A stretch of DNA of 63,759 nt from Candidatus Parcubacteria bacterium (GTDB lineage: Bacteria; Patescibacteriota; Patescibacteriia; Patescibacteriales; UBA12075). The stretch covers positions 1 to 63,759 of the forward strand of contig JAGLYP010000028.1 in the NCBI GenBank assembly GCA_023132155.1, written 5' to 3'. This document shows, piece after piece, positions 1,462-60,438 of this stretch. The position numbers and the translations under genes were made by a program. The notes beneath the pieces were generated by a model that made no database searches, was not told the origin of the DNA, and saw only the letters and a program-made list of their open reading frames with translations. Within the stretch, counting starts at the first letter, position 1. The number at the start of each line of letters is the position of its first letter.

Positions 1462-1501
1462 TTGTCATTCCATGGGCGCGGAGCGCAACCTGGAATCAGG
1501 G
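1462..1501 (+). repeat. solo TGTCAT-type hairpin repeat unit
   Basis: TTTGTCATTCCAtgggcgcggagcgcaaccTGGAATCAGGG carries the TGTCAT outer signature and has ATTCCA/TGGAAT stem potential. It is related to the other TGTCAT...CGA units in this window. Confidence 0.4.
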
Positions 1502-1631: not shown

Positions 1632-2426
1632 ATGGTATCAAAAAATACAATTTTAAGCGCTAAAGACAGTAAATTAATAGAAAAAGTCATTATAAAACAT
1701 GGTGATATTGTTGCTGTCGGCAGTATTTTAAAAATATTTCAAAAAGAATATTCACTTCTTGCCGCCCGCAACAGAATACACCAGCTGAAAAAAAGAGGCT
1801 GGTTTGTCCGTGTTAAACAAGGGCTTTATGTTGTTGTTAGCGATATTGCATCAAGATCAACGAGCAATATATCTTTATTTAGAATAGCTCAGACTCTAAA
1901 TAACAAATCTTATGTAAGTTTTGATTACGCGTTAAATTACTATAATATGTTTGACCAATACGCGAAAACGATTACATCAATTACGACAACACGAGCAAAA
2001 AAATATGAATTTCAAGAAATAATTTTTAAGTTTGTTAAAATTAATAAAAATTATTATTTTGGTTTTTCCAAAAAACGAATTGAAGGCAAATTAGTCAACA
2101 TAGCCGATTTGGAAAAAGTTATTATTGATTATCTTTATTTTAATAAAACTTCCTATATTTTAAGCTTGATGCTGGAAAAATTAAAAAATTATAAAAATGA
2201 TTTTGATTTTGAAAAGATGCAAAATTATGCTTCGCGCTGCAACATAACAACACAGCGTAAAATCGGTTTTTTATTGGATGAAATAGGAGTTGATACTAAA
2301 AAATTATATAATAAAGTAAAATCAAACAACAAGGGATATTCTCGTTTTAGCAAAGATTCAAAAAAATTTAACAGTAAATGGCGCGTATATTATGATTATA
2401 GAATTATTAAACAAAAGAGAACTTGA
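1632..2426 (+). CDS. abiEi: type IV toxin-antitoxin AbiEi-family antitoxin / transcriptional regulator
   Basis: The N-terminal wHTH segment RNRIHQLKKRGWFVRVKQGLYVVV matches the AbiEi signature L.kkGwl.r..rGlY. The gene sits directly upstream of, and overlaps, an AbiEii gene. Confidence 0.8.
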   Translation: MVSKNTILSAKDSKLIEKVIIKHGDIVAVGSILKIFQKEYSLLAARNRIHQLKKRGWFVRVKQGLYVVVSDIASRSTSNISLFRIAQTLNNKSYVSFDYALNYYNMFDQYAKTITSITTTRAKKYEFQEIIFKFVKINKNYYFGFSKKRIEGKLVNIADLEKVIIDYLYFNKTSYILSLMLEKLKNYKNDFDFEKMQNYASRCNITTQRKIGFLLDEIGVDTKKLYNKVKSNNKGYSRFSKDSKKFNSKWRVYYDYRIIKQKRT

Positions 2427-3150
2427 AATTTTCAATAAACATTTAAAATATCCTTTGGCTATCGCGGAAAAGGATTATTTTTTAGCGCTTGTGTCTAAAA
2501 TAATTTATAATTCCGTTTTGCGTGAAAAATTAGTATTTAAGGGCGGTACAGCTTTGTATCATGTCTATTTAAAGCAATTGCGGTTTTCCGAAGATTTGGA
2601 TTTTACCGCGGTCAAAAAGCCGGTTATCATTGATGAAATAAAAAAAATATTCGCTCCGTATGATTTTTTGGAAATTAAAAAAGAACATACTTCAAAAGCG
2701 ACAATTAAATTAGAAAGATTAAAGTTCAATGGTCCGCTGGGACAGCCGAATTCTTTAAAAATAGATATTGATTTTATTCAAAATGTTGTTTTACCCCCGG
2801 TGGATATGGAATACAGGAATAATTACGGCGTAAAAACAAAAGTCAGGGTTATGGATATACGCGAAATATGCGCTGAAAAAATCAGGACAATAAGCGATAG
2901 GGCGAGATATAGGGATTTTTATGATTTAACCATGATATTCAGAAATTTCAAAATTCATCCTGAAGAAATCATCAGTTTAATAAAGCAAAAAGAAATTCGC
3001 CGGCCAATTACAAAAAAGTCAATGTTGAAAAATTGGAAAATTGTTAAACAAGACAAACGGAACGGGTTGTCTAGTATTTATTATTCAGAAGAAATAAGCG
3101 ATAATGAAATTCAGCAAATGATAAAGGGGCTAAGGCTGAAAATACATTAA
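2392..3150 (+). CDS. abiEii: AbiEii/AbiGii-family nucleotidyltransferase toxin
   Basis: FKGGTALYHVYLKQLRFSEDLDFT is the hallmark KGGTAL...RFSEDiDf motif. The ATG at 2392 overlaps the abiEi 3' end by 35 nt. Confidence 0.85.
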   Translation: MIIELLNKRELEIFNKHLKYPLAIAEKDYFLALVSKIIYNSVLREKLVFKGGTALYHVYLKQLRFSEDLDFTAVKKPVIIDEIKKIFAPYDFLEIKKEHTSKATIKLERLKFNGPLGQPNSLKIDIDFIQNVVLPPVDMEYRNNYGVKTKVRVMDIREICAEKIRTISDRARYRDFYDLTMIFRNFKIHPEEIISLIKQKEIRRPITKKSMLKNWKIVKQDKRNGLSSIYYSEEISDNEIQQMIKGLRLKIH

Positions 3151-3198: not shown

Positions 3199-3441
3199 AA
3201 TGCGTTTATGTGAAATATGTTTTTATAAAAAATGCTAAAGATAACCAATGGCCATATTTTTTTATAAACAGTGAGTTTTTTTATTTAAGTGAATAATATC
3301 TAATTTTTAGATATATTTTATAAAAATTTCATAATTATTTTATAATAATTTTATTTATTTGCAACAAAAATTAGTATTTGTCAAATTTTTGTAAATTTTT
3401 AGTTTTTTTCTATTTTTAGCTATTTTTAGCTATTTTTTTTA

Positions 3442-3470
3442 TTGACAAATTTGTTTTTATATGCTAGATT
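3442..3470 (+). promoter_or_regulatory. sigma-70-like promoter (TTGACA-17-TAGATT)
   Basis: TTGACA lies at 3442-3447 and TAGATT at 3465-3470, separated by a 17-nt spacer. An A/T-rich region with CTATTTTTAG direct repeats lies upstream. Confidence 0.5.
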
Positions 3471-3477
3471 TTAAATG

Positions 3478-3560
3478 CAAGTTATGCCCAAAGGGCACTA
3501 ACAGTAGTCGGGAATACGCCCCAAAGGAAGTGCCCTTGGGGTATTCAAATTCCTTGACTA
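3478..3560 (+). promoter_or_regulatory. conserved structured leader element, copy 1 (long form)
   Basis: CAAGTTATGCCCAAAGGGCACTAACAGTAGTCGGGAATacgccccaaaggaagtgcccttggggtATTCAAATTCCTTGACTA recurs at 24651-24752 and, reverse-complemented, at 40797-40852. It lies between a promoter and the GT2 start codon. Confidence 0.6.
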
Positions 3561-4582: not shown

Positions 4583-4717
4583 TTTTGTCATTCCCGACAC
4601 ACCCAATCTCGCCCTCTTTTTTGTCATTCTCTACACATCTTTGCCCCGCTCACTTTTGTCATTCCCGACACTCCCAGCCTCGCAGAGAAGTTATATTAAA
4701 TGATCGGGAATCTCTTT
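4583..4717 (+). repeat. cluster of three TGTCAT-type repeat units (MITE-like)
   Basis: The units are TTGTCATTCCCGACACacccaatctcgccctc, TTGTCATTCTCTACACatctttgccccgctcac, and the full unit TTTTGTCATTCCCGACACTCCCAGCCTCGCAGAGAAGTTATATTAAATGATCGGGAATCTC. The full unit has an ATTCCCGA/TCGGGAAT stem. Confidence 0.65.
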
Positions 4718-8628: not shown

Positions 8629-9720
8629 ATGAATAAAAATAACAAAAAGAAAATTTTATTTATTGCCCCGCAACCTTTTTTTGAAATTAGAGGAACGCCA
8701 ATTGCAAATAAAAATATGTTAGAAATTTTGTCTTCTGAATATGAGATTGATTTTTTATCATATCCAATTGGAGAAAATATTAATATAAAAAATGTTAATT
8801 TTTTTAGGTCAAAGTTTTTTGGAGTAAAAGATATTAAAATTGGTTTTTCGTTAAAGAAAATTATTTTAGATTTTGGTTTATATCTGAAAACAAAAGAATT
8901 ATTGAAGAAAAAAAAGTATGATGTTATTCATGCTAATGAAGAATCAATTTTGTGGGCCAGTAGATTGGCTAAAAAATATAATATAAGATTTGTTTATGAC
9001 ATGGATTCAATTATCTCAGAACAATTAAAAAATAAAGACAACGTTTTTTTGGCAAAAATAATGAAAAAAATTGAAGCTAATGCAGTTATGCAGTCAAATT
9101 TAATTCTAGGTATTAGCTCTAATTTTGAAAATTTTTGTAAAAGAATAAAAAATAATGTTAATTATGTTACTATTTGGGACGTTCCGCAGATAACTGATAA
9201 ATTCAAGTTGGAGAATCGTTTTTTAAGTAAGTTAGATAATAATAAATTTAAAATTTCGTATATAGGGAATAATGAGTATTACCAAGGGACTGATATTATT
9301 TTAGAATTGGCAAAAGAGCTACCTGAATATCAGTTTATTTTGGCGGGAGTTGGAATAGACTCTGTTGAAAATAATGTAGTTAGATTTTCAAAGGTTCCAA
9401 TGGGTCAAATTTTTGATCTAATGAGTAGAGTGAATTTATTAATTTCACCAAGGCGAAACGGAACAAATCCTCCAATGAAAATTTATACATATATGTCATC
9501 TGGAAAACCGATTATTGCTAGCAATATTCCTGCACATAATATTTTAATAAATTGTGGGTTTCTCGTTGATCAAGATATTGATTCTTATAAATGTGGAATA
9601 AGAAAAGCTTTATCTAAAAAAGGAAAGATTTTAGCAAAAAAAGCAAAATTAAAAGTTTACAGAGAATTTAGTTTTGAAAAATTAAAAAATTTAGTTTTGA
9701 AAAAATATGGAGAAATATAA
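8629..9720 (+). CDS. GT4-family glycosyltransferase
   Basis: The protein has a GT-B layout. The N-terminus reads KILFIAPQPFFEIRGTPI, and the C-terminal nucleotide-sugar region reads LLISPRRNGTNPPMKIYTYMSSGKPIIASNIPAHN. Confidence 0.7.
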   Translation: MNKNNKKKILFIAPQPFFEIRGTPIANKNMLEILSSEYEIDFLSYPIGENINIKNVNFFRSKFFGVKDIKIGFSLKKIILDFGLYLKTKELLKKKKYDVIHANEESILWASRLAKKYNIRFVYDMDSIISEQLKNKDNVFLAKIMKKIEANAVMQSNLILGISSNFENFCKRIKNNVNYVTIWDVPQITDKFKLENRFLSKLDNNKFKISYIGNNEYYQGTDIILELAKELPEYQFILAGVGIDSVENNVVRFSKVPMGQIFDLMSRVNLLISPRRNGTNPPMKIYTYMSSGKPIIASNIPAHNILINCGFLVDQDIDSYKCGIRKALSKKGKILAKKAKLKVYREFSFEKLKNLVLKKYGEI

Positions 9721-10762
9721 AATAGTTCATATAATAAAAGGTGATTATGGGGGTATGGACTTTTTAGCAAAAAAAATATTTAAAAAATATAATCAAAAAT
9801 ATAATCAAAAAATATTTTTTTTTGAAAATTATGGAAAAAAATTGTACAAAAATTATGTAAACAAAAAAATATTTTCAATTAAAATAAAAAATGAAGTAGT
9901 TTATCTTAATTTATGGTTTAATTTAAAAGATTTATTTCAAGCAGATATAATACACATTCAGCATACAAAGATATGGATTTTATTTTCTCCATTATGTTTT
10001 TTTTGGAGAAAAAATATTTTTTCTTTTCATATAAATTTTGGAGTTGCTGTAAAAAAAAGTTTTTTTATAAGAATTATAATTAGTTTAATAATTTCATATA
10101 TTGCTTTGTTTTCTAAACAAATTATTTGTCTTACGATTGGACAACAAAAAAATCTCAAACAATATAGCTTGCTAAAACGAAAATTTAATAAAAAAGCGGT
10201 AGTTATTAATAATTTTATTAGTAAAAAAATAATTGTTAAAGAGAAAAATAATTTTAATAATAAAATTTTATTTGTAGGTAGATATGAAAAATTAAAAGGG
10301 TTTTATGATTTGCTCAAAGTTTCTAAGAATATTATTGATATAGAGTTTTGTTTTATTGGTGGAGATAAAATTGAAATGGAACAAAAAAATATAATTAATT
10401 ATGGCAAAATTGAAAATTCTCAAATTTTAGAATATTATGATAAATGCTCTATTTTTATTTTGCCCTCATATACAGAGGCTTTTCCAATGACAATTCTTGA
10501 AGCAATGAGCAGGGGATTGGTTATTTTGGTTTCTAATATTCCAGGAATGAACGAAATTATAAAGGATGGGCATAATGGGTATTTGTTTAGCACTGGAGAT
10601 ACAAAAAAGATGAAAGAAATAATTGAGTATTTAAAAGATAATCCATGTGAAATAAAAAGAATTTCAAAAAATAATCTTAAAGATGTTCAAAGATTCACAG
10701 AAGAAAAATTAATTAAAGGATATGAAAAATTATATAAAAAGGTAATAGAAGAAAATGCTTAA
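9707..10762 (+). CDS. GT4-family glycosyltransferase
   Basis: LPSYTEAFPMTILEAMSRGLVILVSNIPGMNEIIKDGHNGYLF is the canonical EX7E region. The gene overlaps its upstream neighbour by 14 nt. Confidence 0.8.
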   Translation: MEKYKIVHIIKGDYGGMDFLAKKIFKKYNQKYNQKIFFFENYGKKLYKNYVNKKIFSIKIKNEVVYLNLWFNLKDLFQADIIHIQHTKIWILFSPLCFFWRKNIFSFHINFGVAVKKSFFIRIIISLIISYIALFSKQIICLTIGQQKNLKQYSLLKRKFNKKAVVINNFISKKIIVKEKNNFNNKILFVGRYEKLKGFYDLLKVSKNIIDIEFCFIGGDKIEMEQKNIINYGKIENSQILEYYDKCSIFILPSYTEAFPMTILEAMSRGLVILVSNIPGMNEIIKDGHNGYLFSTGDTKKMKEIIEYLKDNPCEIKRISKNNLKDVQRFTEEKLIKGYEKLYKKVIEENA

Positions 10763-12026
10763 ACAAAAATATAGACAACACAAAGAAATAATTGATAATT
10801 TTCTTTGGAGAATATTACAAATATTGGGAAAGCAGGGGACTGTTTTTTTAATATTTTTTGTCTCAGCAAAATTTTTACTACCTGAAAATTTTGGATTATT
10901 GAATTATTTAATGGCAATAATTGCATTGTTCATGATTTTTTGCGATTTTGGATTATCATCTTCAATTTCAAAATATTCGGCAGAATATAAAAATAAAGAT
11001 AAAAATAAGCTACCCGATTTATTGAATTCGTCTTTATTAATTATTTTTGGGTTGTCGTTTTTGGTAAGTTTTATTATTGTTTTTTGTGGACAAAAAATAA
11101 TTGGTAATAATTTATTGTTATATTTTATTCCCTATATTTTTTTGTATCCAATAACAAGTTTGTTTGACGGTTATTATCGTGGAATAAAAGAATTTAAAAA
11201 GATTTCCATTATAACAATATTTTCTGGAATTATTTCAATTTTATTATCATTTGTTTTAATTTCAAAATATTTATTTATTGGAGCAATTATTTCACAAAAT
11301 TTATTTTTTATTTTATTGGGATTTTTATTTTTTATTACGAAAAAAAAAGAAAAAATTAGTTTTAATAAAGAAATAGCAAGGCAAGTTATAAAATATGGGT
11401 TAGTTATAGGAATTATCAATGTTTTGTTTTTTTTATACACAAAAGTAGATATTATTATTTTAAAATATTTTGGATATATTGTTGAAATTGGATATTATGA
11501 AATTGTCAATAAAATATTTATGATTTTATTAATACCTTTCGTGATAATAGGACAAGTAATTGCGCCTAATATTACAAAGCTATATTCTGATAAAAAATAT
11601 CAAATTGTAAAAAAGAAATTTTGGCAGTATATGATATTTTTTTCAATTATTTCTTTTGTATTGGCAATTTTTGTTTATTTTATTTTTCCAATAATTCTTA
11701 AGATTGCTTTGTTTAAATATTTTACTAATGACACAATTTTAATTTTTCAATTTTTAATATTACTTTTTCCGTTAAAAGCTGTCGCTGCAATAATAAATCA
11801 TGCGCATACTGTTCCAACAGGCAATGCTAAGTTTTCCATGTGGACGATGATTCCTGCCGGGATTGCAAATGTTTTTTTAGATTTTATATTTATCGCAAAA
11901 TATGGTTTTATAGGAGTTGTTTACTCAACAATAATTTGTTATATTTTTGCAACCGTGTCATTTATAATTTTATACTATTTAAAGTTAAATAAATTAATAA
12001 AAATACAGATAAATGAAAAATACTAA
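10755..12026 (+). CDS. Wzx-like oligosaccharide flippase (MOP superfamily)
   Basis: The 423-aa protein has about 12 predicted TM spans and sits inside a glycosyltransferase operon. Its N-terminus, NFLWRILQILGKQGTVFLIFFVSAKFLLPENFGLLNY, is typical of polysaccharide biosynthesis flippases. Confidence 0.65.
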   Translation: MLKQKYRQHKEIIDNFLWRILQILGKQGTVFLIFFVSAKFLLPENFGLLNYLMAIIALFMIFCDFGLSSSISKYSAEYKNKDKNKLPDLLNSSLLIIFGLSFLVSFIIVFCGQKIIGNNLLLYFIPYIFLYPITSLFDGYYRGIKEFKKISIITIFSGIISILLSFVLISKYLFIGAIISQNLFFILLGFLFFITKKKEKISFNKEIARQVIKYGLVIGIINVLFFLYTKVDIIILKYFGYIVEIGYYEIVNKIFMILLIPFVIIGQVIAPNITKLYSDKKYQIVKKKFWQYMIFFSIISFVLAIFVYFIFPIILKIALFKYFTNDTILIFQFLILLFPLKAVAAIINHAHTVPTGNAKFSMWTMIPAGIANVFLDFIFIAKYGFIGVVYSTIICYIFATVSFIILYYLKLNKLIKIQINEKY

Positions 12027-12882
12027 TCCTAAAATTTCCGTTATAATGTCAACCTATAACGAGCCGTTAGAATGGATAAAAAAAAGCATAGATTCTATTT
12101 TAAATCAAACCTTTATAGATTTTGAGTTTATTATAATAAATGATAATCCAGATAGAATTGAATTACAAAAGTTTTTAGAAAATCATAAAAGGCAAGATAA
12201 AAGAATTATTTTAATAAAAAATAATAAAAATTCAGGATTAACAAAATCATTAAATGAAGGATTAAAAATAGCAAAAGGTAAATATATCGCAAGGATGGAT
12301 GCGGATGATATTTCTTTTTTAGATAGATTTAAAATACAATATGAATATTTAGAAAAGAATAATAGTATTTATTTAGTTGGCTCTGGTGCGATATTAATTA
12401 ATGAGCAGGAGAGTACAATAGGAGCTTTTACGCCATTGACAGATACTAAAAAGATAGAAAATAGGCTAAAAAAGACAAATTGTATTTATCATCCGACCAT
12501 TATGTTTAAAAATGAGAAAATATTTTATAGAGAAAAAATGTTTTATTGTGAGGACTACGATTTGTATTTACGGTTATTATCTAAAGATAAACAATTATCT
12601 AATATTAGTGATACTTTAATCGAGTATAGGATAAATTCTAATTCAATATCAAAGTCTAAAAAATTATATCAAAAATTATTTACAAAAAAAGCTAAAGATT
12701 TTTATTTTCAAAGAGCAAAAAATGGCTTTGATGATTATAAAAATTTTGATTTTAATAAAATTTTAAATAGTAATTTTTTTAACTCTCCGATACAAATAGT
12801 TTATGTGATTTTAAAAATTTATTATTTTAAGATTGAGTTTATTTTTAAAAAAATGTTATACAAAATGAAAAATATATTTTAA
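12013..12882 (+). CDS. GT2-family glycosyltransferase
   Basis: ISVIMSTYNEPLEWIKKSIDSILNQTFIDFEFIIINDNP and ARMDADDIS supply the DxD motif of GT-A fold GT2 enzymes. Confidence 0.85.
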   Translation: MKNTNPKISVIMSTYNEPLEWIKKSIDSILNQTFIDFEFIIINDNPDRIELQKFLENHKRQDKRIILIKNNKNSGLTKSLNEGLKIAKGKYIARMDADDISFLDRFKIQYEYLEKNNSIYLVGSGAILINEQESTIGAFTPLTDTKKIENRLKKTNCIYHPTIMFKNEKIFYREKMFYCEDYDLYLRLLSKDKQLSNISDTLIEYRINSNSISKSKKLYQKLFTKKAKDFYFQRAKNGFDDYKNFDFNKILNSNFFNSPIQIVYVILKIYYFKIEFIFKKMLYKMKNIF

Positions 12883-13031: not shown

Positions 13032-15320
13032 TTAATTTTGAAATATAAAAAAATTATAATCACCTATTCTTTTTTCAAGAATAAATTTGTTTTTGATATC
13101 GTACTCTTTAATTATTTGCCCCCTCTCTCCAATATCTTTGAAGTATTCATAGTTTTTATCTAATTTTGAAAAAATTATATCTGTCCTCCTATAAGATGTT
13201 TTTTGTAAATCTTTGTCCGTAAATATATTAGCGTATTTTTCATAATCGGGAGATTCCTTGGCCGTAATTAAGTATTTTATTTTATATTTTTTCATGGTTT
13301 CTGAAAATCCATTTTGCCTAACAGACAATTTAAAAGATGGCTTATCAAAAAAAGAATAATCTCCAAGCCTGCCCCTTCCAGTGCTTATAGTAAGCGGAAG
13401 CACGGTAGATTCGTCAATATAGATTTCGTCTTCATAGGTGTGGGAAATTAAATAATTTGATGCTTCAGATAGTCCGTTTAATCGTATAGATAATAATGCT
13501 GTTGTTTTCTGAAAAGTTAAAATTGACGAAGAACATATAAGTATAATTAAAAATATTTTAGAAAACCGTGATTTAAAAGTCATTAATAAAGTAGATGTTG
13601 CGATACAAAAAGAAATCATAATAATTATTGTATAGTAATTATGAAAAAAAATAATTTTAGATGCTAAAATCCAGTATATTAAACTTCCCAAAATAAATGA
13701 TTTTAGTAAAATTTTTGATCTAGTATTTATATTATAAAAATTTATAATACCAATTAATCCAAAAAAGAAAATTAAACTAGTCATATATTCTTTGAATTGA
13801 TTTATTAACATATATTTATAAAAAGAAAAATTCAAGATTAATCTATGGTCAGTTAAAAATTCTTCAAAGTAGTACTTTAATCCAAGCAGATTTAAGAATA
13901 TTATTGTTAATGAAATTAAAATAAAAAAGAATATGGCTAAGAGAATTTTTTTTTCGGACAATTTATAAAAAATTTTATCAATTTTTTTGTTATATTTATT
14001 TATTTTTTTAATCAATGTAAATATTAAAATTATACTTATTAAAAACAAAAAAATTCCTCTATTAGCATTTGATGGTAAAATTTCTATAGATAATTTAGAT
14101 ATAAGCAAAGGGGCAGATATAGAGAAAAAAAAGATAGAAGAACTTTTTAAAAAAAGATAAAGTTTAGTTTGTTTATAGTAAAGGAATGTTAAATAAATTG
14201 GAATTGCGAATAATGCTAGATTGTATTTTCCAGAAATTCCAATACCTAGTATTAATCCTGAAATAATTAATGAATTAATATTATTTTTTTTAAAATAAAT
14301 ATTTAAATAAATTAATGAAAGAAACATTATGGCGATACACAGACTGTCATAGATAGTGACAAATGTTGAAAATAAAATTATAGGATTAAGCGCAATTAAT
14401 AATGAAATTAATAAGGATGTTTGTTTTAAAAATATTTCTTTCAAAAAAATATATGAAAAAATAATAATTAATATCCCAATAAAATGCATAACGATTCTTG
14501 TAGAAAATTCTATACTAGTTTGTGGCAGTATTTTGTATACTGCCGAAAGTGACCATTCCAAAATTGGTAAATGTCCGAATTTTTGGAAAATACCTTGTTT
14601 GTTATCTATTGGATCTATATTATATTTTTTTTGAAATAAAAAAGGATTATTTTTTTCTGCCATATATTTAGCTGGCTCTACATATGCATTATATTTCATC
14701 CTGTGTTTTCCTGAAAAATCCGTATTTAAATACGGAGCTTTAATGAAAGTGAATAAAAATATAATAAACAACAAGATTAAAAAATATCCCCATCCTTCTT
14801 TATATATCCATCGAATAAAGTTTCTTAATCCCCAAATTTTGTTTATTTTTTGGAATTTTTTATAAAATTTTTCGTATCGTTTTTGTTCTATTTTCTCTTC
14901 GTTTAATTTTTTTATTTCAATTTCTTTTTCAATTCTATTTCTATTTGCGTAAAAAGTAAGAAAACCAATCATTATTGAAACACAAGATATTTCAAAAGTA
15001 TAATTGATTATTATTTCGTTTTTTAAAAATTGATTTATTGCTATTATCGCTAATGAAAATAAAAATAAACAAGAGAATGTTTTAATTAATTTTGATTTCT
15101 CTCTTTTGTTTTCCGGAATATTTTTAATAATTTGCGAGAAATAAAAAGTAATAGAAATTATAGAAATCGCAAAAATATATTTAATTTCAATATAAAAAGA
15201 AATAATATTATTAAAGAAGACATTATAAAACAACACTATTATATAAAAAAGTAGTGTTGTTATTGATATATAAAGCGATATTTTTTTCCAATCAATTTTT
15301 TTAAATTTATTCCACATCAA
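13032..15320 (-). CDS. large polytopic GT-C-type membrane glycosyltransferase (PMT/ArnT-like) with C-terminal extracytoplasmic domain
   Basis: The 762-aa protein has more than 12 hydrophobic spans followed by a soluble C-terminus of about 150 aa. It lies in an operon with another GT-C gene. The assignment rests on architecture only. Confidence 0.5.
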   Translation of the reverse strand: MMWNKFKKIDWKKISLYISITTLLFYIIVLFYNVFFNNIISFYIEIKYIFAISIISITFYFSQIIKNIPENKREKSKLIKTFSCLFLFSLAIIAINQFLKNEIIINYTFEISCVSIMIGFLTFYANRNRIEKEIEIKKLNEEKIEQKRYEKFYKKFQKINKIWGLRNFIRWIYKEGWGYFLILLFIIFLFTFIKAPYLNTDFSGKHRMKYNAYVEPAKYMAEKNNPFLFQKKYNIDPIDNKQGIFQKFGHLPILEWSLSAVYKILPQTSIEFSTRIVMHFIGILIIIFSYIFLKEIFLKQTSLLISLLIALNPIILFSTFVTIYDSLCIAIMFLSLIYLNIYFKKNNINSLIISGLILGIGISGKYNLALFAIPIYLTFLYYKQTKLYLFLKSSSIFFFSISAPLLISKLSIEILPSNANRGIFLFLISIILIFTLIKKINKYNKKIDKIFYKLSEKKILLAIFFFILISLTIIFLNLLGLKYYFEEFLTDHRLILNFSFYKYMLINQFKEYMTSLIFFFGLIGIINFYNINTRSKILLKSFILGSLIYWILASKIIFFHNYYTIIIMISFCIATSTLLMTFKSRFSKIFLIILICSSSILTFQKTTALLSIRLNGLSEASNYLISHTYEDEIYIDESTVLPLTISTGRGRLGDYSFFDKPSFKLSVRQNGFSETMKKYKIKYLITAKESPDYEKYANIFTDKDLQKTSYRRTDIIFSKLDKNYEYFKDIGERGQIIKEYDIKNKFILEKRIGDYNFFIFQN

Positions 15321-17091
15321 TTTTTATTTCCTTAAATAATATCGGATTTTGAATAATATTCTCAGTAAGCGCAAAATCAAAATTTTCCTTGTTGTCAGTA
15401 ATAATTTTTATTGGCAATAAATCGTCTTTGTTTAAAAAAATATTATCAGGCAATAATAAAATTGCTTCGCTTGGCAAAGAATTTTTTAACCAAGATATTA
15501 AATCCGTTGCGAGAGAATTTGTGTTTTTTAATTCGTTATTGCCAAATAATTTATATTCATTAAACTGCGCCAACGGGCTATATCCTTTTGTATACAGAAA
15601 ATTTTCATTTTTAAATTGTTTATATAGCTCATTATTTCTAATTTGAAAAGTTATAGATTTTAAATTATCTGATTTTTCAATATTCTTTAATGAAAATAGT
15701 TTATCAACCTTTAACCAGTTATTCGCCAATTTAGTATAATTTGTATCAGAAATTATAATATCAGTCCCAATATTTGTAAAAGTATTAGTGTAAATTTCAA
15801 AATAATTATTTTTATCAATAGAAAAATTAAAACCATCTGTGCGCTGATCTCCTTTTGTAGTAATAATATTTTCTCCGCTTAACATATCTGTGTATTGCCA
15901 TTTACCCAGTCGTATATCATCTATAACAATATCTTGTTCAATATTTTCTGATTTAATTTTTATTGTTTGCACCGCGTTTCCATGCCACGCGTAAAATCCA
16001 ACATTTAGTATCCCTTTATTATTCGTATATAATTTTGCATCATCAAGTATTAAAGATTTTTCTGCAAATATAATTTTATTAGTATTAATTTTAAAGTTAG
16101 TAATTGTCCAGTCATAATTTATTAAGTCAGGATTAGCTATATCAAGAGCCAATTTATAAACTCCGCTACTTGGAACATCAAAACTTATATCCTTCCTAAC
16201 AACCGGCGTAAATTTTTTGCTTGCATCCTCAATCCCATCATCATCCAAAAAATCCTCTTCAATCAAATTATCATCCAAATCATACAAAGCAACCCGCACC
16301 CTATCAGCACCCTCATAATTATTCAAATCCTTCTTAATAACTTCCATCTCCAACCCACCCTCCAAATAAACAAAAAACTCATGCGGACCCCTTATAGTCT
16401 TATCCATAGTCGTCCATTCCCCCTTATGAAAATCAATATCAGGATTAACCAATTTAGACTTAGGAAAAACCTCATTCTTAATCTCAATAGAATCATCAGG
16501 ACTGGCATTAAGCCCGATCCACTCCTCAATAGAATCAGCAGATATATAATCATCCCGCTTTTCTTTAGTATAAATATGAACCCCATCAAAAGTAGCAGCC
16601 AAAAAATAATCGCCCATCTTGCCGTCGTAAAACGCCTGCCAATTGTATTTTTCTTCCTTTTCACAATTCGGACACACAAGTGAAATCTCCCATTCGCCGT
16701 CGCCTTGCAAAATCATAGAAACAGTAATGTTTTTATTAAGCGGAAACTCCTCCGGTTGGAAAACAAAAGAAATAGGGGAGCCTTCAACTTGGGCGATAGT
16801 GCCGGTGTCGGTCTCTTCAAAATAAGAAAACTTTGGAGAATTTTGCAGTTCGTTAATATACAGAGGGAGCTCTGTATTTTTGAAATTTTCTTCGTTAAAG
16901 TCTACTGAATAGCTCGCATTGTAATTTTGCGCGTCATAGAATTTTACGCCTAAGTAAATTAAAATAGAAAAAGGAAGCAACAGCGCGATAATTTTCGCGA
17001 TTGTGTTTAAATTATCCCATTTGTACCTTAGCCTTATTACAAGATGTTTTTTTGGTTTTCTTATATGTTTTTTAATTTGTTTTCTTAGCAT
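15307..17091 (-). CDS. membrane-anchored extracytoplasmic protein, unknown function
   Basis: The 594-aa protein has a basic N-terminus, one TM span (IAKIIALLLPFSILIYLGV) and a large soluble domain. It overlaps the downstream GT-C gene by 14 nt. Confidence 0.6.
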   Translation of the reverse strand: MLRKQIKKHIRKPKKHLVIRLRYKWDNLNTIAKIIALLLPFSILIYLGVKFYDAQNYNASYSVDFNEENFKNTELPLYINELQNSPKFSYFEETDTGTIAQVEGSPISFVFQPEEFPLNKNITVSMILQGDGEWEISLVCPNCEKEEKYNWQAFYDGKMGDYFLAATFDGVHIYTKEKRDDYISADSIEEWIGLNASPDDSIEIKNEVFPKSKLVNPDIDFHKGEWTTMDKTIRGPHEFFVYLEGGLEMEVIKKDLNNYEGADRVRVALYDLDDNLIEEDFLDDDGIEDASKKFTPVVRKDISFDVPSSGVYKLALDIANPDLINYDWTITNFKINTNKIIFAEKSLILDDAKLYTNNKGILNVGFYAWHGNAVQTIKIKSENIEQDIVIDDIRLGKWQYTDMLSGENIITTKGDQRTDGFNFSIDKNNYFEIYTNTFTNIGTDIIISDTNYTKLANNWLKVDKLFSLKNIEKSDNLKSITFQIRNNELYKQFKNENFLYTKGYSPLAQFNEYKLFGNNELKNTNSLATDLISWLKNSLPSEAILLLPDNIFLNKDDLLPIKIITDNKENFDFALTENIIQNPILFKEIKIDVE

Positions 17092-17152
17092 ATTGTTTTT
17101 TCGTCTTTAATTGTTTATTTTATGGTTGCCGGTAATTCATATATTATAGATT

Positions 17153-17200
17153 TCTCCGCTCCGTTCCGCTGTCGCTCCACTCCGGTCGAAATGACAAAAA
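17153..17200 (-). repeat. solo TGTCAT-type half-element
   Basis: The minus strand reads TTTTGTCATTTCGACCGGAGTGGAGCGACAGCGGAACGGAGCGGAGA. This has the same TGTCAT..CGA outer signature as the inverted-repeat elements, with no partner arm nearby. Confidence 0.45.
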
Positions 17201-29123: not shown

Positions 29124-29237
29124 TTTTGTCATTGCGAGCGCCAGCGAAGCAATCCCGTGGTTCTTGTATTGCCCGCTGTTAATCCGCACATGATATTCTG
29201 TGGCACGGGATTGCTTCGCAAGCTCGCAATGACAAAA
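29124..29237. mobile_element. MITE-like hairpin element with TGTCATTGCGAGC... terminal inverted repeats
   Basis: The left arm is TTTTGTCATTGCGAGCGCCAGCGAAGCAATCCCGTG and the right arm is CACGGGATTGCTTCGCAAGCTCGCAATGACAAAA, which is imperfect in the middle. The core is about 45 nt. The element begins 3 nt after the lepA stop codon. Confidence 0.7.
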
Positions 29238-33501: not shown

Positions 33502-33771
33502 ATAATATTAATTTATTTACAAATATATTTTACAGCCTATTTCGTTTTTAGTCAATTTTAAACGATTTGCCTAATAAAAACTTTTTTAAACTGCTCTTTA
33601 CTGGTATAATGTAGATATGTTAACCACCCATGCTATACACTTACATTATTATTAATTGTTTTTTTATTGTTTTAACGAGTGTTTTTTAGCATTTTGATAA
33701 ACGTCCATCCTCTTTGATTTTTTATTTTGATGAGTAATTATTTTTTTTGTCATCTTAACAAGCACCTCCTC

Positions 33772-34237
33772 TTTTGTCATCTCGACGAGCGCAGCGAGGA
33801 GAGATCTATAATACATGAATTATGCAAAAAGACTACAATTTTTACGTCTATGTCGTAAGTAATTTCAAAAGAACTTGTTTTTATATTGGATTTTGTAACG
33901 ATATATTGCGTCGGACAATTGAACACATGTATGGCCTCGGCAGCAGTTACACCAAAAAATACAAAACAAAAGACTTGTTATATTATGAACATTATCAATA
34001 TGTAAATAGCGCAATCTACAGAGAAAAAGAAATAAAAAAATGGCGGAGAGAAAAGAAGTTAGAACTAATAAAAAATAATAACCCAGGGTTAAAAACATTA
34101 AATCAGGAGTTGTTTAATACGCACAGGATAAGCCCAAGAGGCATTCAGGAAATAATAACTATATTAAAAGAGAATTATAGGAATAAGTAATAATATATTA
34201 AAGATCTCTCCTCGCTGCGCTCGTCGAGATGACAAAA
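33772..34237 (+). mobile_element. 466-bp cassette bounded by perfect 36-bp terminal inverted repeats, with a GIY-YIG gene as sole cargo
   Basis: Positions 33772-33807 read TTTTGTCATCTCGACGAGCGCAGCGAGGAGAGATCT, and 34202-34237 are the exact reverse complement (checked base by base). Partial extra end copies lie at 33746-33762 and 34245-34290. Confidence 0.7.
33822..34190 (+). CDS. GIY-YIG nuclease superfamily protein (UPF0213/YhbQ-like)
   Basis: FYVYVVSNFKRTCFYIGFCNDILRRTIEH........Y...L.Y.E....E....A..REKEIKKWRREKK supplies the GIY...YIG, Arg, Glu and KxW-R-KK pattern of small stand-alone GIY-YIG proteins. Confidence 0.85.
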   Translation: MQKDYNFYVYVVSNFKRTCFYIGFCNDILRRTIEHMYGLGSSYTKKYKTKDLLYYEHYQYVNSAIYREKEIKKWRREKKLELIKNNNPGLKTLNQELFNTHRISPRGIQEIITILKENYRNK

Positions 34238-34318
34238 AAAGGGGCTCGTCGAGATGACAAAAAAAGGGGAAAGCTCGTCAAAACGACAAGGAAACAAGAG
34301 CTAATCAATACGAAATAT

Positions 34319-35350
34319 ATGGAAGAAAAATTAAAAAAAGTTAAAGCCTTATGGGAGAGGTTAAAAGTTAGCGGGGCGACAAGCAAGGAATTGTGTGAAT
34401 TAATTAAAAATGTTCCTGAATTAAGGAATGAGGTTTGGCGGGAATTGAAAAAGAATAATCCCACCAACGAGGATTTGCGTTTTTTAATTGAATTTGTTGA
34501 TGGTGATTTACAAAAAGAATTTTGGGAAGAATTGAAAAAAAATAAAATTTCAAATTTTGAATTAAAAAATATTATTGAATATGTTGAACCGTTTAGAAAA
34601 GAAGCTTGGAAAAAACTTTTAAAACAAAAACCGACTAATTTTGAATTGCGCGATATTGCGCGATATGTCGAGCCATTAAGGCATGACGCGTGGAAAAAAT
34701 TGGCAAAACAAAAGCCGACTGAAAATGATCTGATATATATAATTAAATTTGTTGAATCATTAAGGAAAGACGCTTGGAAAAAACTGGCGAAAATGAATCC
34801 GGATACTGATAATTTATTATATATAATTAAATATGTTAAAGAACTTAGGGAGGATGCATGGAAATTAACGCTTAAATTAAGGCAATCAAATGATATAATA
34901 AGAAAAATAATAACCAAAGTGCCTGATTTCAGGGAGCGCGCGTGGGAAACGCTTTTGGCGCAAAATCCAAGCAACAGTGATTTATGCTTTATAATAAAAG
35001 ACGTTGAATCGCTGCGCGAACAGGCATGGAAAGAATTTTGCAAAAAGAATCCTTCTAACGAGGATTTGCGTTTTATATTGAAGCATGTTAAAGAATTAAG
35101 AAGCAGGGCATGGAAAAATTTATTGGAGCGGAAGCCGACAAATAATGATTATTGTTTTATCATAAAAGATGTTGAATCTTTGCGTGTTGAGGCTTGGAAA
35201 AAATTTATAAAAAACAAACCGACAGACGATGAAATTGATTTTATAATCCGCTATATTCCGACTTTAAAAAATTACGCGGAACGATATAAAAAGACTAAAA
35301 ATAATAAAATTTTAGAAGAGATTAAAGATATTTATTTATATGAAAAATGA
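34319..35350 (+). CDS. alpha-helical tandem-repeat protein (~10 x 32-33 aa, HEAT/ARM-like)
   Basis: The unit P(T/S)N.DL..II..V..LR..AWK.L.K.K repeats about 10 times. The start is set at ATG 34319 (MEEKLKK), because the longer ORF from 34229 begins inside the TGTCAT repeat copies. Confidence 0.65.
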   Translation: MEEKLKKVKALWERLKVSGATSKELCELIKNVPELRNEVWRELKKNNPTNEDLRFLIEFVDGDLQKEFWEELKKNKISNFELKNIIEYVEPFRKEAWKKLLKQKPTNFELRDIARYVEPLRHDAWKKLAKQKPTENDLIYIIKFVESLRKDAWKKLAKMNPDTDNLLYIIKYVKELREDAWKLTLKLRQSNDIIRKIITKVPDFRERAWETLLAQNPSNSDLCFIIKDVESLREQAWKEFCKKNPSNEDLRFILKHVKELRSRAWKNLLERKPTNNDYCFIIKDVESLRVEAWKKFIKNKPTDDEIDFIIRYIPTLKNYAERYKKTKNNKILEEIKDIYLYEK

Positions 35351-44870: not shown

Positions 44871-45082
44871 TTGTCATCTCCGACACTCCCAGCCCCGCAG
44901 GGAAATTATATTAAATGATCGGAGATCTCGTAAAAATCAATGAACATAAAAAATAATAAAATGTTTTAAAAAAATATTATATTAACAACTATTATCTTAA
45001 AAAATAATTTAGATGCTTTTAAAGAGATTCCCGATCATTTAATATAATTTCCCTGCGGGGCAAATGTGTGTCGGGAATGACA
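44871..45082. mobile_element. inverted pair of TGTCAT(T/C)(C/T)CCGACAC-type units (MITE-like)
   Basis: The left unit at 44871-44929 is TTGTCATCTCCGACACTCCCAGCCCCGCAGGGAAATTATATTAAATGATCGGAGATCTC. The right unit at 45024-45082 is the reverse complement of a near-identical unit. They share the 30-nt core CCCCGCAGGGAAATTATATTAAATGATCGG. The same unit type occurs at 4654-4717. Confidence 0.7.
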
Positions 45083-46447: not shown

Positions 46448-47413
46448 TTATTCCTTCATATTCCGCCCGCTATGAACCTTCCTGTGAATATCTTTAAGCT
46501 GTTTATTGGTTACATGGGTATAAATTTGCGTAGTTGCGATATTTTGATGGCCTAAAAATTCTTGCACCATGCGCAAATCAACGCCTTGGGCAAGCAAGTC
46601 GGTGGCAAAAGAATGCCTAAGCGTATGCGGTGTGGACGCGATTGGCAATCCGCAAATTTTAACATATTTTTTTACGATGTTTTCAATGCTTTTTACGGTT
46701 AAACGGCGCTCCGCGCCGTTTTTTTCAATTCCCGGCTTATAATTTATAAACAAAGCATCGTCAATATCGTTGCGTTTATCTAAATATTTTTTTAGAGATC
46801 TTGTCGCGCGCGCGGACAAATAAACAGTTCTGATTTTTCCGCCCTTACCGGTAATTGATAACTCAATTTCATCAGTAATTTTTGGAATTTTAATTTGTTC
46901 GCGATTTAACGCGACAAGTTCGGCAACTCTTAACCCTGTTGAAAATAAAGTTTCTAAAATCGCCCGATCTCTTAAGCCGATCGCGGTAGACATGTTAGGG
47001 GAGAGTAGGAGTCTTTCCAATTGTTCCAGTTTTAAAAATTTTACTTCTCTTTGAGTTTTATCCCTGGCTAATTTAATGGAGGTGGGGGAGAGTGAATTGA
47101 TTTTTTTTTCAACAAAGAAATCAAGCAGGCCGCGCAAAGCAATTAGATAATAATTCTGCGTTGATTTTTTAAGGGCGGTTTTTGTCCGCGGATCAACGTG
47201 TCTGGATAAAAAAAGGCGATATTTCCAAATATGCTTATCATTTAATTTTTCCGGCTTTAATTTATCTAAATTATTATCGCTTAGCCAATTAAAAAATTTA
47301 TTTAAAAAACGAGAGTAATTTTCTTGCGTTTTCGCGCTCAATCCCCTCTCAATTTCCAAAAAATCAAGGTAGTCAATCAGATATTCAATTATTGGTTTTG
47401 AGTTGTTTTGCAT
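46448..47413 (-). CDS. tyrosine recombinase, XerC/XerD family
   Basis: An N-terminal SAM-like domain is present. The catalytic pattern is R..., HTLRHSFATDLL, then LGHQNIATTQIYTHV. Confidence 0.9.
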   Translation of the reverse strand: MQNNSKPIIEYLIDYLDFLEIERGLSAKTQENYSRFLNKFFNWLSDNNLDKLKPEKLNDKHIWKYRLFLSRHVDPRTKTALKKSTQNYYLIALRGLLDFFVEKKINSLSPTSIKLARDKTQREVKFLKLEQLERLLLSPNMSTAIGLRDRAILETLFSTGLRVAELVALNREQIKIPKITDEIELSITGKGGKIRTVYLSARATRSLKKYLDKRNDIDDALFINYKPGIEKNGAERRLTVKSIENIVKKYVKICGLPIASTPHTLRHSFATDLLAQGVDLRMVQEFLGHQNIATTQIYTHVTNKQLKDIHRKVHSGRNMKE

Positions 47414-47432: not shown

Positions 47433-47589
47433 TTGTCATTGCGAGCTGCTAGTTTTTTGTCATTGCGAGCGCTGTTGTAATTGTCATTGCGAGCGCCAGC
47501 GAAGCAATCCCGTGCCACAGAACACCAGGCGTGATAACAATGGACGGTGCAGGAACCGCGGGATTGCTTCGCTGGCGCTCGCAATGACA
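47433..47589. mobile_element. two solo TGTCATTGCGAGC half-sites followed by a complete MITE-like hairpin element (47481-47589)
   Basis: The complete element has 32-bp perfect arms, TTGTCATTGCGAGCGCCAGCGAAGCAATCCCG and CGGGATTGCTTCGCTGGCGCTCGCAATGACAA. Its core resembles the reverse complement of the core at 29124-29237. Half-sites lie at 47433 and 47456. Confidence 0.75.
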
Positions 47590-59947: not shown

Positions 59948-60438
59948 ATATCAGGACAAGCTATAAGCCGGATCCTGTCCTCCTGCGCTGAAGCTTCGGA
60001 GGACAAGTTCCCTATTTCTTTAAAAAAAAGAGAGCCTGCCCTCCGAAGCTGTAAACGTAGGAGGGGCAATCATTTATCTAGCCCGATTATTGCCAATCGG
60101 GTCATGCGAGCCACTTTTTTCGCGTGGAAGCAAAGCTTCTTTAACGCGATTTGCTCTTGCTTTAGACAGGGTTTACCGCGTACACTCTGTTGCCAGAGGA
60201 CGAGATTTATAGCTTTTTATCTCGAGAACAAAAAACACCAAATCACTTTTCACCTTTCACCAGCGCGAAAGCGCTGGTTAGTATTGTCTCTGTGGCACTT
60301 TCCCTGGAATTTCTTCCGGTGGGCGTTACCCACTGTCGCTTTCATTTTGGATAAAATCCATGCTGGATAAAACCAAAAATCAAAGTCCGGACTTTCCTCC
60401 CCGGTTATACCGGGGTAATTGCCCGCTTATCCTGATAT
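59948..60438 (-). ncRNA. rnpB: RNase P RNA, bacterial type A
   Basis: The minus strand contains these conserved blocks in order: GGAGGAAAGTCCGGAC (P4 5' strand), GGTAACGCCCACC, AGTGCCACAGAGACAA, GGTGAAAGGTGAAAAG, GGTAAACCC, CTAGATAAATGATTGCCCC and GGACAGGATCCGGCTTAT (P4 3' strand). A 14-bp P1 pairs ATATCAGGATAAGC (60438-60425) with GCTTGTCCTGATAT (59961-59948). Confidence 0.9.

Follow-up and report, generated by a model that had tools for sequence, protein, structure and literature searches.

Single-domain GIY-YIG endonucleases that cut their own DNA repeats were described in 2025, when SsnA of Neisseria meningitidis, a 94-aa protein filed under CDD cd10448 (GIY-YIG_unchar_3), was characterized (Chenal et al., Nat Commun 2025, PMC11893778). 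SsnA binds the NTS repeat (CGTCATTCCCGCGMAVGCGGGAATCYRG) solely as single-stranded DNA (ssDNA) and cuts a few nucleotides upstream of it, leaving the complementary strand, double-stranded DNA (dsDNA) and RNA uncut; cutting depends most on the three nucleotides before the palindrome of the repeat and binding on the C after it, and two half-NTS oligonucleotides can rebuild a cleavable site (PMC11893778). Homologues occur in many phyla together with related motifs (SRM), 71% having at least one motif nearby and 42% having motifs on both sides; ssn genes are typically flanked by their own repeat, and in vitro cleavage of the protein's own repeat was shown for three more homologues (PMC11893778). 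We analyzed a stretch of 63,759 nucleotides from a Candidatus Parcubacteria bacterium (contig JAGLYP010000028.1, hereafter the window), an AT-rich bacterial chromosome segment with an RNase P RNA gene, in which a 122-aa GIY-YIG gene lies between two inverted repeats. An earlier, sequence-only reading had taken this cassette for a minimal mobile unit whose nuclease recognizes or cleaves its hairpin-forming ends, adding that it knew of no formally characterized bacterial transposon/MITE system made of a GIY-YIG gene between terminal inverted repeats. The latter statement is outdated by the work on SsnA, which also demonstrated recognition of the hairpin experimentally for the Ssn family (PMC11893778), a property that the window protein would share by homology. 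Our analysis makes it probable that the locus consists of an ssn gene, i.e., one encoding an Ssn-family single-domain GIY-YIG endonuclease, and its cognate SRM hairpin repeats in the chromosome of a member of the Patescibacteria with an ultra-small genome, from a phylum unmentioned in PMC11893778.

The cassette is built around two arms of 36 nt (left arm, TTTTGTCATCTCGACGAGCGCAGCGAGGAGAGATCT) that are exact reverse complements, their complementarity reaching 52 nt at 90% (33765-33816 with 34193-34244), and the 394 bp separating them hold a single credible open reading frame (ORF; Table 1). Each arm amounts to one complete SRM unit, the right one inverted relative to the left, and consists of a T-rich flank, TGTC, a stem half starting with AT, a loop, the complementary stem half and a C, the units proper occupying 33775-33806 (+) and 34203-34234 (-). 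This layout also explains why the arms have AGATCT as their inner ends, since GAGAT, the 3' stem half, is followed by the conserved CT. Outside the arms, truncated copies of the TGTC side are stacked; when up to three mismatches are allowed, the 16-mer TGTCATCTCGACGAGC occurs five times in the window, compared with 0.06 occurrences expected, and all five lie in the ssn locus. The perfect repeat around the GIY-YIG frame, its AGATCT ends and the degenerate end copies beyond both repeats, all of which the sequence-only reading had pointed out, were thus borne out.

Set beside the published system, the locus shows the same overall plan: the protein belongs to the ~100-aa class of single-domain GIY-YIG proteins and is a clear homologue of a gonococcal ORF flanked by NTS copies, and its gene lies between oriented hairpins that have (T/C)GTCAT at the 5' side, a palindrome beginning with AT, and then a C. 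At the level of letters, TGTCATTCCCGA...TCGGGAATC of the window nearly equals the NTS ends CGTCATTCCCGCG...CGGGAATC, and the window repeats are likewise intergenic, dispersed and present in many copies, with stems that vary between lineages. The differences lie in the host, which belongs to the Patescibacteria, in a protein that is ~25 aa longer at the C-terminus, and in loops of 11-36 nt that start and end with GA, whereas published SRM loops measure 0-5 nt. Unlike those of the published system, moreover, the window arms are strictly inverted with TGTC outermost, are identical over 36 nt, and have 5' half-sites stacked outside them.

Table 1. Features of the ssn cassette, its right-hand neighbor and the other SRM-type units of the window; positions are those of the whole stretch
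Positions	Strand	Feature	Unit written out	Basis or remark
33745-33763	+	Truncated SRM 5' half TTTTGTCATCTTAACAAGC, outside the left arm		84% to first 19 nt of left arm; 3 mismatches to 16-mer; without 3' stem half
33772-33807	+	Left arm, complete SRM unit	TTT-TGTC-ATCTC-(GA..17 nt..GA)-GAGAT-CT	36-nt perfect inverted repeat with right arm; architecture scan
33807-33812	+	TATAAT box just inside left arm, possible -10 element, 10 nt before start codon		Read from sequence
33822-34190	+	ssn gene, 122-aa single-domain GIY-YIG protein, long form with two extra C-terminal helices		Pfam, homology, AlphaFold2
34202-34237	-	Right arm, complete SRM unit	TGTC-ATCTC-(17 nt)-GAGAT-CT	Exact reverse complement of 33772-33807
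34244-34268	-	Outer (5') half of right SRM, exact 25-nt duplicate		Direct repeat family D1, 100%
34273-34297	-	Degenerate third copy of outer half (GCTCGTCAAAACGACAAGG...)		68% to D1 reference; 3 mismatches to 16-mer
34319-35350	+	Neighboring helical-repeat gene, 343 aa, outside the cassette; its start bounds the intergenic space on the right		43% full-length identity, E=1e-91, to L098 orthologue
1463-1497	+	Solo SRM unit	At 1464: TGTC-ATTCCA-(18)-TGGAAT-C	ssDNA fold -7.8 kcal/mol
4586-4712	+	Truncated 5' half-sites (4586, 4622), then complete long-loop SRM 4657-4712	At 4658: TGTC-ATTCCCGA-(35)-TCGGGAAT-CTC	
17149-17196	-	Solo SRM unit, TGTC ATTTC GA...GA GAAAT CT	At 17195 (-): TGTC-ATTTC-(33)-GAAAT-CT	Stem type commonest in wider family
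29127-29234		Cargo-less MITE-like inverted SRM pair, ~50-bp core, between lepA and recJ	At 29128: TGTC-ATTGC-(13)-GCAAT-CC	
44872-45082		Inverted long-loop SRM units 44872-44927 (+) and 45026-45082 (-), ~100 bp AT-rich between; gltX / M23 peptidase gap	At 44873: TGTC-ATCTCCGA-(35)-TCGGAGAT-CTC	
47434-47589		Truncated 5' half-sites (47434, 47458), then complete inverted SRM pair 47482-47589; adjoins xerC/D-like gene	At 47483: TGTC-ATTGC-(13)-GCAAT-CC	

To place the protein in a family, we combined profile, sequence and structure comparisons. Pfam returned PF01541 (GIY-YIG; E=7e-10, residues 7-79) as the sole family above its cut-off, with the related GIY-YIG-type family T5orf172 scoring under its threshold; no DDE, HUH (Y1_Tnp), serine recombinase or tyrosine recombinase domain was found by Pfam in the window protein, and no NCBIfam model matched it. 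A tblastn search of the plasmid records in PLSDB supplied an SsnA-type ORF for comparison, by way of two N. gonorrhoeae chromosomes of 2.17 Mb that are listed there as plasmids and are almost unannotated (NZ_CP119140.1 and NZ_CP119142.1). The ORF in NZ_CP119140.1 (locus L087, 1516-1800) is 94 aa long, has canonical NTS copies on both sides (~1304, 1388-1410, 1802, 1877 and 1960-1985) and, going by this length and these flanks, is presumably the SsnA orthologue. The window protein aligns with it at 35% identity, gapless over 85 aa (E=4e-19, 62 bits), and a profile of 18 homologues of the window protein matched it in hhalign with a probability of 99.5%. Across these 18 homologues Y10, Y21, G23, R31, H35, Y47, R67, E68 and N87 are invariant, such that the catalytic-type residues of GIY-YIG enzymes are kept: the GIY and YIG tyrosines, the Arg and the metal-binding Glu/Asn positions. 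The AlphaFold2 model (pLDDT 93.3) consists of a GIY-YIG core and two extra C-terminal helices, the ~25-aa extension that is specific to a long, Patescibacteria-type subfamily.

In a search of proteins at large, the family proved very large (7009 matches), and none of the 120 best of these matches is a Neisseria protein. The top Foldseek matches of the model were the GIY-YIG domains of UPF0213 (BH0048), Slx1 and the UvrC N-terminus, and no solved Ssn structure was among the matches of Foldseek or of the PDB sequence search. Fold and nearest structures would also suit a free-standing GIY-YIG homing endonuclease or a UPF0213/YhbQ-type housekeeping protein, to which the repeats would be unrelated. 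We regard this as extremely improbable, as the protein lacks a DNA-binding domain and its gene is not set in an intron or intein, it scores 62 bits against the gonococcal SsnA-type protein and only ~25 bits (E about 1e-4) against the UPF0213 structures 1zg2/1ywl, and 44-61 of 80 homologues are associated with repeats, as described below. We therefore file it as a putative Ssn-family member on the strength of the gonococcal match, the profile match, the invariant residues, the AlphaFold2 fold and the weaker UPF0213 score, an assignment by sequence, profile and predicted fold rather than one to CDD cd10448.

The association of gene and repeat was examined in homologous loci. A scan of one genome per species yielded 561 confirmed homologous stretches, and the best 80 of these were analyzed; they come from Patescibacteria, Saccharibacteria, Bacteroidota, Chloroflexota, Ignavibacteria, Nitrospirota, Zixibacteria, Calditrichota and Gammaproteobacteria. 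A correctly oriented unit was present within 200 nt upstream of the gene in 51 loci, within 250 nt downstream in 61, and on both sides in 44, against a background of 0.23 such units per kb elsewhere in the same loci. In 322 kb of loci from ssn-free relatives, SRM-like units were ~20-fold rarer (0.009 per kb). Of 80 loci that come from def relatives and lack ssn, one (L090, 2648-2850) holds an inverted SRM-type pair (TGTCATTCCCGG...GGGAATCC); its genome probably has an ssn gene elsewhere. In the 80 ssn loci the consensus unit is TGTC-ATTTC-GA...GA-GAAAT-CT; its loop measures 9-45 nt and is usually not the same on both flanks of a given gene, so that in L005, L006 and most other loci the two sides have in common TGTC, the stem and the C only.

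That the stem itself is maintained became evident when we tabulated the 3' half found with each 5' half, with no palindrome imposed. ATTTC was followed by GAAATC in 269 of 337 cases and ATCTC by GAGATC in 31 of 36, while the corresponding figures were 23/47 for ATTCC with GGAATC, 9/20 for ATCCC with GGGATC and 6/9 for ATTGC with GCAATC. The table is almost purely diagonal, with off-diagonal counts near zero, and the stem is therefore kept by compensatory change. Stem type, in turn, follows protein subfamily: ATCTC stands on both sides of the gene in the window and in L004, L005 and L007, whose proteins are at least 62% identical, and on one side in two further long-form proteins, whereas ATTTC is found with most others. 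Both the covariation of the repeat with the GIY-YIG subfamily and the presence of matching repeats at homologues elsewhere, on which the sequence-only reading had staked its proposal, are thus observed.

The orthologous locus L004, whose protein is 85% identical, allowed us to compare the rates at which the parts of the cassette change. The left arm, its inner flank and the start codon are 100% identical over 62 nt, and the right arm keeps 36 of 37 positions, while the ORF has diverged by ~14% and the outer intergenic DNA by more. The number of half-sites also differs: a further left half-site is present in L004, in a block of 57 nt that the window lacks, and the window has a right half-site (34244-34268) that is absent from L004. 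The arms are thus conserved while the half-sites change fast in number. Across all loci, truncated 5' halves stand 19-30 nt upstream of full units in 14 cases, compared with one stacked 3' half; such halves, at distances of 19-36 nt, are seen in the window (33745-33763, 34244-34297, 4586-4656 and 47434-47481) and in L008, L016, L022, L023, L042, L047 and L052. By analogy with the rebuilt NTS site, the single 3' half could form a stem with a stacked 5' half, which would provide alternative cutting registers; alternatively, the stacks may be scars of cleavage and repair.

Another reading has the arms work in the transcript only and not as DNA, their pairing serving to stabilize the ssn mRNA, to end it or to silence it, and a perfect 36-bp stem would indeed form if both arms were transcribed (as computed with DNA parameters). 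This, too, is highly improbable. The arms of homologues are not complementary through their loops, and what is conserved is instead the small hairpin of each arm and its orientation; SRM-type units also occur far from any ssn gene; our scan found no terminator-like site, and Rfam gave no match at the repeats; and the characterized Ssn enzymes do not bind RNA (PMC11893778). A weaker indication comes from the TATAAT box at the left arm, downstream of which a transcript would probably lack that arm: the region around it (AGATCTATAATACATG) is kept in L004 and L006, though the box is a consensus match and the promoter scan has no entry there.

Elsewhere in the window, the TGTCAT hairpins listed in the sequence-only reading are all present, in six other intergenic regions, and what they share is a common unit, not a common sequence. 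An architecture scan (GTCAT, a stem of 5 bp or more from the AT onward, a loop of up to 60 nt, the stem complement and a C) gave 13 matches in the window, compared with 1.4 expected and a maximum of five among 100 dinucleotide shuffles. The window holds 11 complete units, all with T-GTC and the trailing C, as well as half-sites; TGTCATNNCGA occurs 10 times (0.21 expected) and TTGTCAT 24 times (7.6 expected). All elements are intergenic, their neighbors being genes for a GT2 glycosyltransferase, a Fic protein, lepA/recJ, gltX/M23 peptidase and a xerC/D-like recombinase. The latter, a tyrosine recombinase gene (46448-47413, -), directly adjoins the repeat cluster at 47434-47589, probably by coincidence.

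By their sequences, these hairpins can be classed as SRM-type units of other stem families, some of them arranged as inverted pairs that resemble miniature inverted-repeat transposable elements (MITEs). The pairs at 29127-29234 and 47482-47589 are two copies, in opposite orientation, of one 108-bp element: both SRM arms are identical over their initial 32 nt and the core is ~70% identical, with a short indel difference in the second arm of the 29127 copy. A second repeat family has three copies (4657-4712, 44872-44927 and 45026-45082), in which the stem ATCTCCGA/TCGGAGAT of the 44872 region differs in a compensatory manner from ATTCCCGA/TCGGGAAT of the 4657 unit; the latter, as ssDNA, folds with an 8-bp stem.

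We then asked how the cassette relates to its chromosomal site. Syntenic relatives, the closest metagenomic ones as judged by def (54-63% identical to that of the window), keep the order p513-Memo-p87-def-VTT-RNaseH-recJ without ssn. In five of them p87 abuts def, with gaps of 65-184 bp that contain neither ssn nor the repeat, and in L098 an empty gap of 105 bp separates def from the orthologue of the 343-aa helical-repeat protein; the matching spacer in the window measures 817 bp, 552 bp of which are the cassette and its half-sites. The locus is thus an insertion relative to these relatives. The interval between def and p87 is itself variable, being occupied in L098 by the repeat-protein gene (1017-2153), in L093 by an unrelated 951 bp without a convincing ORF (2050-3001) and in the window by ssn plus the repeat-protein gene (33502-35339), and it looks like a local insertion hotspot. 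Empty sites, then, exist at deep divergence only; among three independent assemblies the protein and cassette are identical, with no polymorphism. Nor did we find a target-site duplication beside the arms or the outermost half-sites in the window.

The nearest ssn homologues (62-68% identity) occupy a different locus, between cysS and dus; cysS and dus, which might have marked an unoccupied counterpart of the L005 and L006 insertion site, are absent from the window. In L006 (= L007), the last 103 bp of cysS, stop codon included, are directly duplicated on both sides of the cassette with 90% identity (at about 2841-2943 and 3428-3530), as would be left by integration of a circle carrying a cysS segment or by an element that brings a replacement gene end. 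Both arms of L006 read TGCTATCTC in place of TGTCATCTC, the same change at both ends. Across larger distances, ssn ORFs of different phyla share 80-84% nucleotide identity, which stops at the ends of the ORF (~290 bp) and points to recent horizontal transfer, with mis-binning possible in single cases. This set comprises L016, L019, L022, L023, L039, L042, L047, L052 and L073, from metagenome-assembled genomes of Saccharibacteria, Chloroflexota, Nitrospirota, Zixibacteria, Armatimonadota and Gammaproteobacteria.

Taken together with what is known of SsnA, these results suggest how an ssn gene with cognate SRM repeats could work in the window. An SRM unit would fold once its DNA is single-stranded, i.e., during replication, repair or recombination or in incoming transforming DNA; the protein would bind the stem and the following C, and would hydrolyze the strand that carries the unit, a few nucleotides before TGTC on its 5' side, leaving dsDNA, RNA and the complementary strand untouched. 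The predicted cuts accordingly flank the cassette, that of the + strand immediately outward of the left arm and that of the - strand immediately outward of the right. By analogy with the characterized enzymes, ssDNA cleavage by the window protein, a set of targeted SRM families and a cellular role may be expected. The cassette itself would be a horizontally acquired insertion in the intergenic region between def and the repeat-protein gene, and such modules would probably spread and persist semi-selfishly, through nuclease-stimulated host recombination and horizontal transfer and not through self-catalyzed cut-and-paste.

Several points weigh against this interpretation. The published SRM search string, HGTCWYN(0-2)YYVSBRHN(0-5)WNVSBRGN(0-2)RNCYNB, has no match in the window and seven in the 80 loci, none of them adjoining ssn. 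It misses the window units because its loops are allowed 0-5 nt only, and the repeats are therefore a variant whose recognition by the protein we infer; the string is an operational search pattern, not a biological definition, and a miss marks a variant, not an exclusion. A single ssn arm has a folding energy of -2.2 kcal/mol, which does not surpass that of shuffles, and neither the ATCTC nor the ATTGC type rises above shuffles in single-arm folding energy, so the evidence for the hairpin is covariation, not energy. Were the whole cassette single-stranded, its arms would pair with each other (-85 kcal/mol, z=-8.5), which might compete with folding of the units. The other SRM families of the window carry ATTGC, ATTCCCGA and ATTCCA stems, unlike the ssn flanks, and the window has a single ssn gene, a search of its 64 kb for a second ssn gene or pseudogene having produced noise matches only. 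The activity of the window protein would follow from its homology to characterized enzymes. Finally, the empty sites come from distant relatives, in which the cassette may have been lost, and the cross-phylum identities derive largely from metagenome-assembled genomes.

The same evidence bears on whether the cassette moves by itself, as an autonomous transposon with terminal inverted repeats (TIRs) in which the GIY-YIG protein would be the transposase, the 36-bp arms the ends, and the cargo-less hairpins MITEs mobilized in trans. Its layout, a single gene between perfect inverted arms, invites this idea, and the authors of the Ssn study likewise compared NTS-ssnA-NTS to an insertion sequence (IS), proposing domestication and leaving mobility untested (PMC11893778); we found no later paper on Ssn mobility in a literature search. 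Absence of the cassette from syntenic relatives, the other locus used by its homologues, the near-identical ssn ORFs across phyla, dispersed MITE-like families with the same end architecture, and the 103-bp duplication around the L006 cassette, atypical as that is for a target-site duplication, all speak for it. We nonetheless consider it unlikely. The window has one copy in 64 kb and no target-site duplication, the three assemblies show no polymorphism, and many ssn loci are syntenic between genera. Moreover, a conserved TIR does not appear to be the feature under selection, because the arms of homologues usually differ in loop sequence, as well as in loop length, and share TGTC, stem and C only.

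Mechanistic considerations point in the same direction. GIY-YIG nucleases hydrolyze DNA without a covalent intermediate and hence do not rejoin strands on their own. Since an Ssn enzyme cuts the repeat-bearing strand only and the arms are inverted, one nick per strand is predicted, in each case at the 5' cassette boundary, rather than the two cuts on one strand of IS200/IS605 elements, whose ends are not inverted repeats and share a strand. In other respects the locus resembles IS200/IS605 TnpA and the repetitive extragenic palindromes (REP) or bacterial interspersed mosaic elements (BIME) with their REP-associated tyrosine transposases (RAYT): there, too, a small protein gene is accompanied by flanking and genome-wide extragenic hairpins that are recognized as folded ssDNA and cleaved a short distance away, with possible domestication of a mobile element. 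Those enzymes are, however, of the HUH Y1 type, with a tyrosine covalent intermediate, while a GIY-YIG hydrolase has none and lacks intrinsic rejoining.

The elements at 29127-29234, 47482-47589, 4657-4712, 44872-44927 and 45026-45082 are short, cargo-less, repeated and intergenic like MITEs and Correia-type elements, and some have terminal inverted repeats. Classical MITEs, however, have TIRs in common with a DDE-transposase IS, as well as target-site duplications, neither of which was found in the window, and the TIRs of the window are SRM hairpin units. Of the proposal that the cargo-less elements derive from the ssn cassette, therefore, what stands is that they form genuine repeat families sharing the TGTC-hairpin-C layout; their stems differ from those of the ssn flanks. 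The minimal mobile unit fared similarly, with signs of acquisition and an IS-like layout on one side and, on the other, no target-site duplication, one copy, no joining domain and arms that differ among homologues.

Movement by way of host functions deserves separate consideration. GIY-YIG homing endonucleases (I-TevI, Seg) and Penelope-like retroelements offer a precedent for a nuclease that serves a mobile gene and spreads it through host repair of a break, and by analogy such a break-repair mechanism could move the ssn cassette; they differ in having separate DNA-binding or reverse-transcriptase domains, dsDNA targets and no flanking hairpins. Because of the insertion relative to relatives, the near-identity across phyla, the MITE-like families and the 103-bp duplication in L006, we tentatively raise the rather doubtful idea that SRM-ssn-SRM cassettes are an unrecognized class of prokaryotic mobile elements, in which the ssDNA-specific nuclease would nick hairpin ends that replication or DNA uptake has exposed; copies of the cassette, or of cargo-less pairs, would then arise at further intergenic sites, even across phyla, by recombination of the host or by template switching, with the stacked 5' half-sites as scars of cleavage and repair. 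The mobility of such cassettes is not demonstrated to date, and movement, if assisted by the nuclease, would depend on host recombination.

Two further observations concern the arrangement of ssn genes in other genomes. A same-genome pair of loci, L025 and L027, was considered as transposition copies with sharp boundaries and rejected, as their homology extends over 4.5 kb and not over the cassette only, which looks like redundancy or duplication of a region. In Prolixibacteraceae and Maribellus relatives, a ~1.9-kb block downstream of ssn (L009, L014 and L017) is homologous to a block upstream of it (L024, L025 and L027), such that two ssn genes may bracket the same gene block.

A domesticated, immobile module, of the kind proposed for Neisseria, is also possible, if on the doubtful side: Ssn and genomic SRM marks would together benefit the host by restricting or modulating incoming single-stranded (transforming) DNA or recombination intermediates, and the repeats flanking the gene would be ordinary members of the genome-wide set or autoregulatory. 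Patescibacteria take up DNA by natural competence. In N. meningitidis, SsnA reduces transformation by NTS-flanked DNA (PMC11893778). Within the window the SRM units lie strictly between genes, beside ordinary ones (lepA/recJ, gltX and GT2), ssn synteny is stable in several lineages, and constraint is stronger in the arms than in the ORF. Against a host function of this kind, the patchy spread of near-identical genes across phyla and the absence of ssn from syntenic relatives would rather be expected of an accessory or selfish gene, and the functional evidence is confined to Neisseria.

The repeats also leave their mark on gene annotation. Gene callers begin the 343-aa neighbor at ATG 34229 within the right repeat ('MTKKGARRDDKKRG...') and place a 50-aa ORF over the left one (33664-33816, -). 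The predicted true start of the neighbor is the ATG at 34319, not that at 34229 inside the right arm, and the called start and the 50-aa ORF are probably artefacts of the repeat units. Translated repeat likewise appears at the ends of several Ssn homologues in databases, such as P0002 ('MSSRGAKR...'), P0010 ('...SSLRSSR') and P0008 ('...VISTRGRNL').

Two features elsewhere in the window complete its description. Between 8001 and 16000 the G+C content falls to 22-25%, compared with 29-40% elsewhere, in a stretch with large ORFs (8629-12882, +; 13032-17091, -) that might be an island; Pfam gave no match for 15307-17091. At Rfam gathering thresholds, the only match in the whole window is a class A RNase P RNA (59948-60434, -; 173.6 bits), whose alignment of 487 nt against 367 model positions suggests insertions, as is often the case in bacteria of the candidate phyla radiation (CPR).

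With the nuclease-repeat system known since 2025, what is new here is modest: the host phylum, the long-form subfamily, the SRM variant and the comparative hints on mobility. The known range of the Ssn/SRM system now includes the Patescibacteria (CPR) and a subfamily of long-form proteins, and SRM variants with long GA...GA loops emerge as a large, widespread class that the published pattern misses, because of which the published association figures of 71% and 42% are probably underestimates. Annotations in these lineages hold spurious ORF starts and ORFs that are in fact repeat units. Each Ssn/SRM pair is a candidate sequence-specific reagent for cutting ssDNA, and the window locus offers a new candidate specificity, that for the ATCTC stem. 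Lastly, the empty sites, the 80-84% identity across phyla, the greater conservation of the arms than of the ORF and the one-sided stacking of half-sites bear on the question of mobility; if the cassettes do move, they would represent a new strategy of transposition or homing, based on an ssDNA-specific hydrolase.

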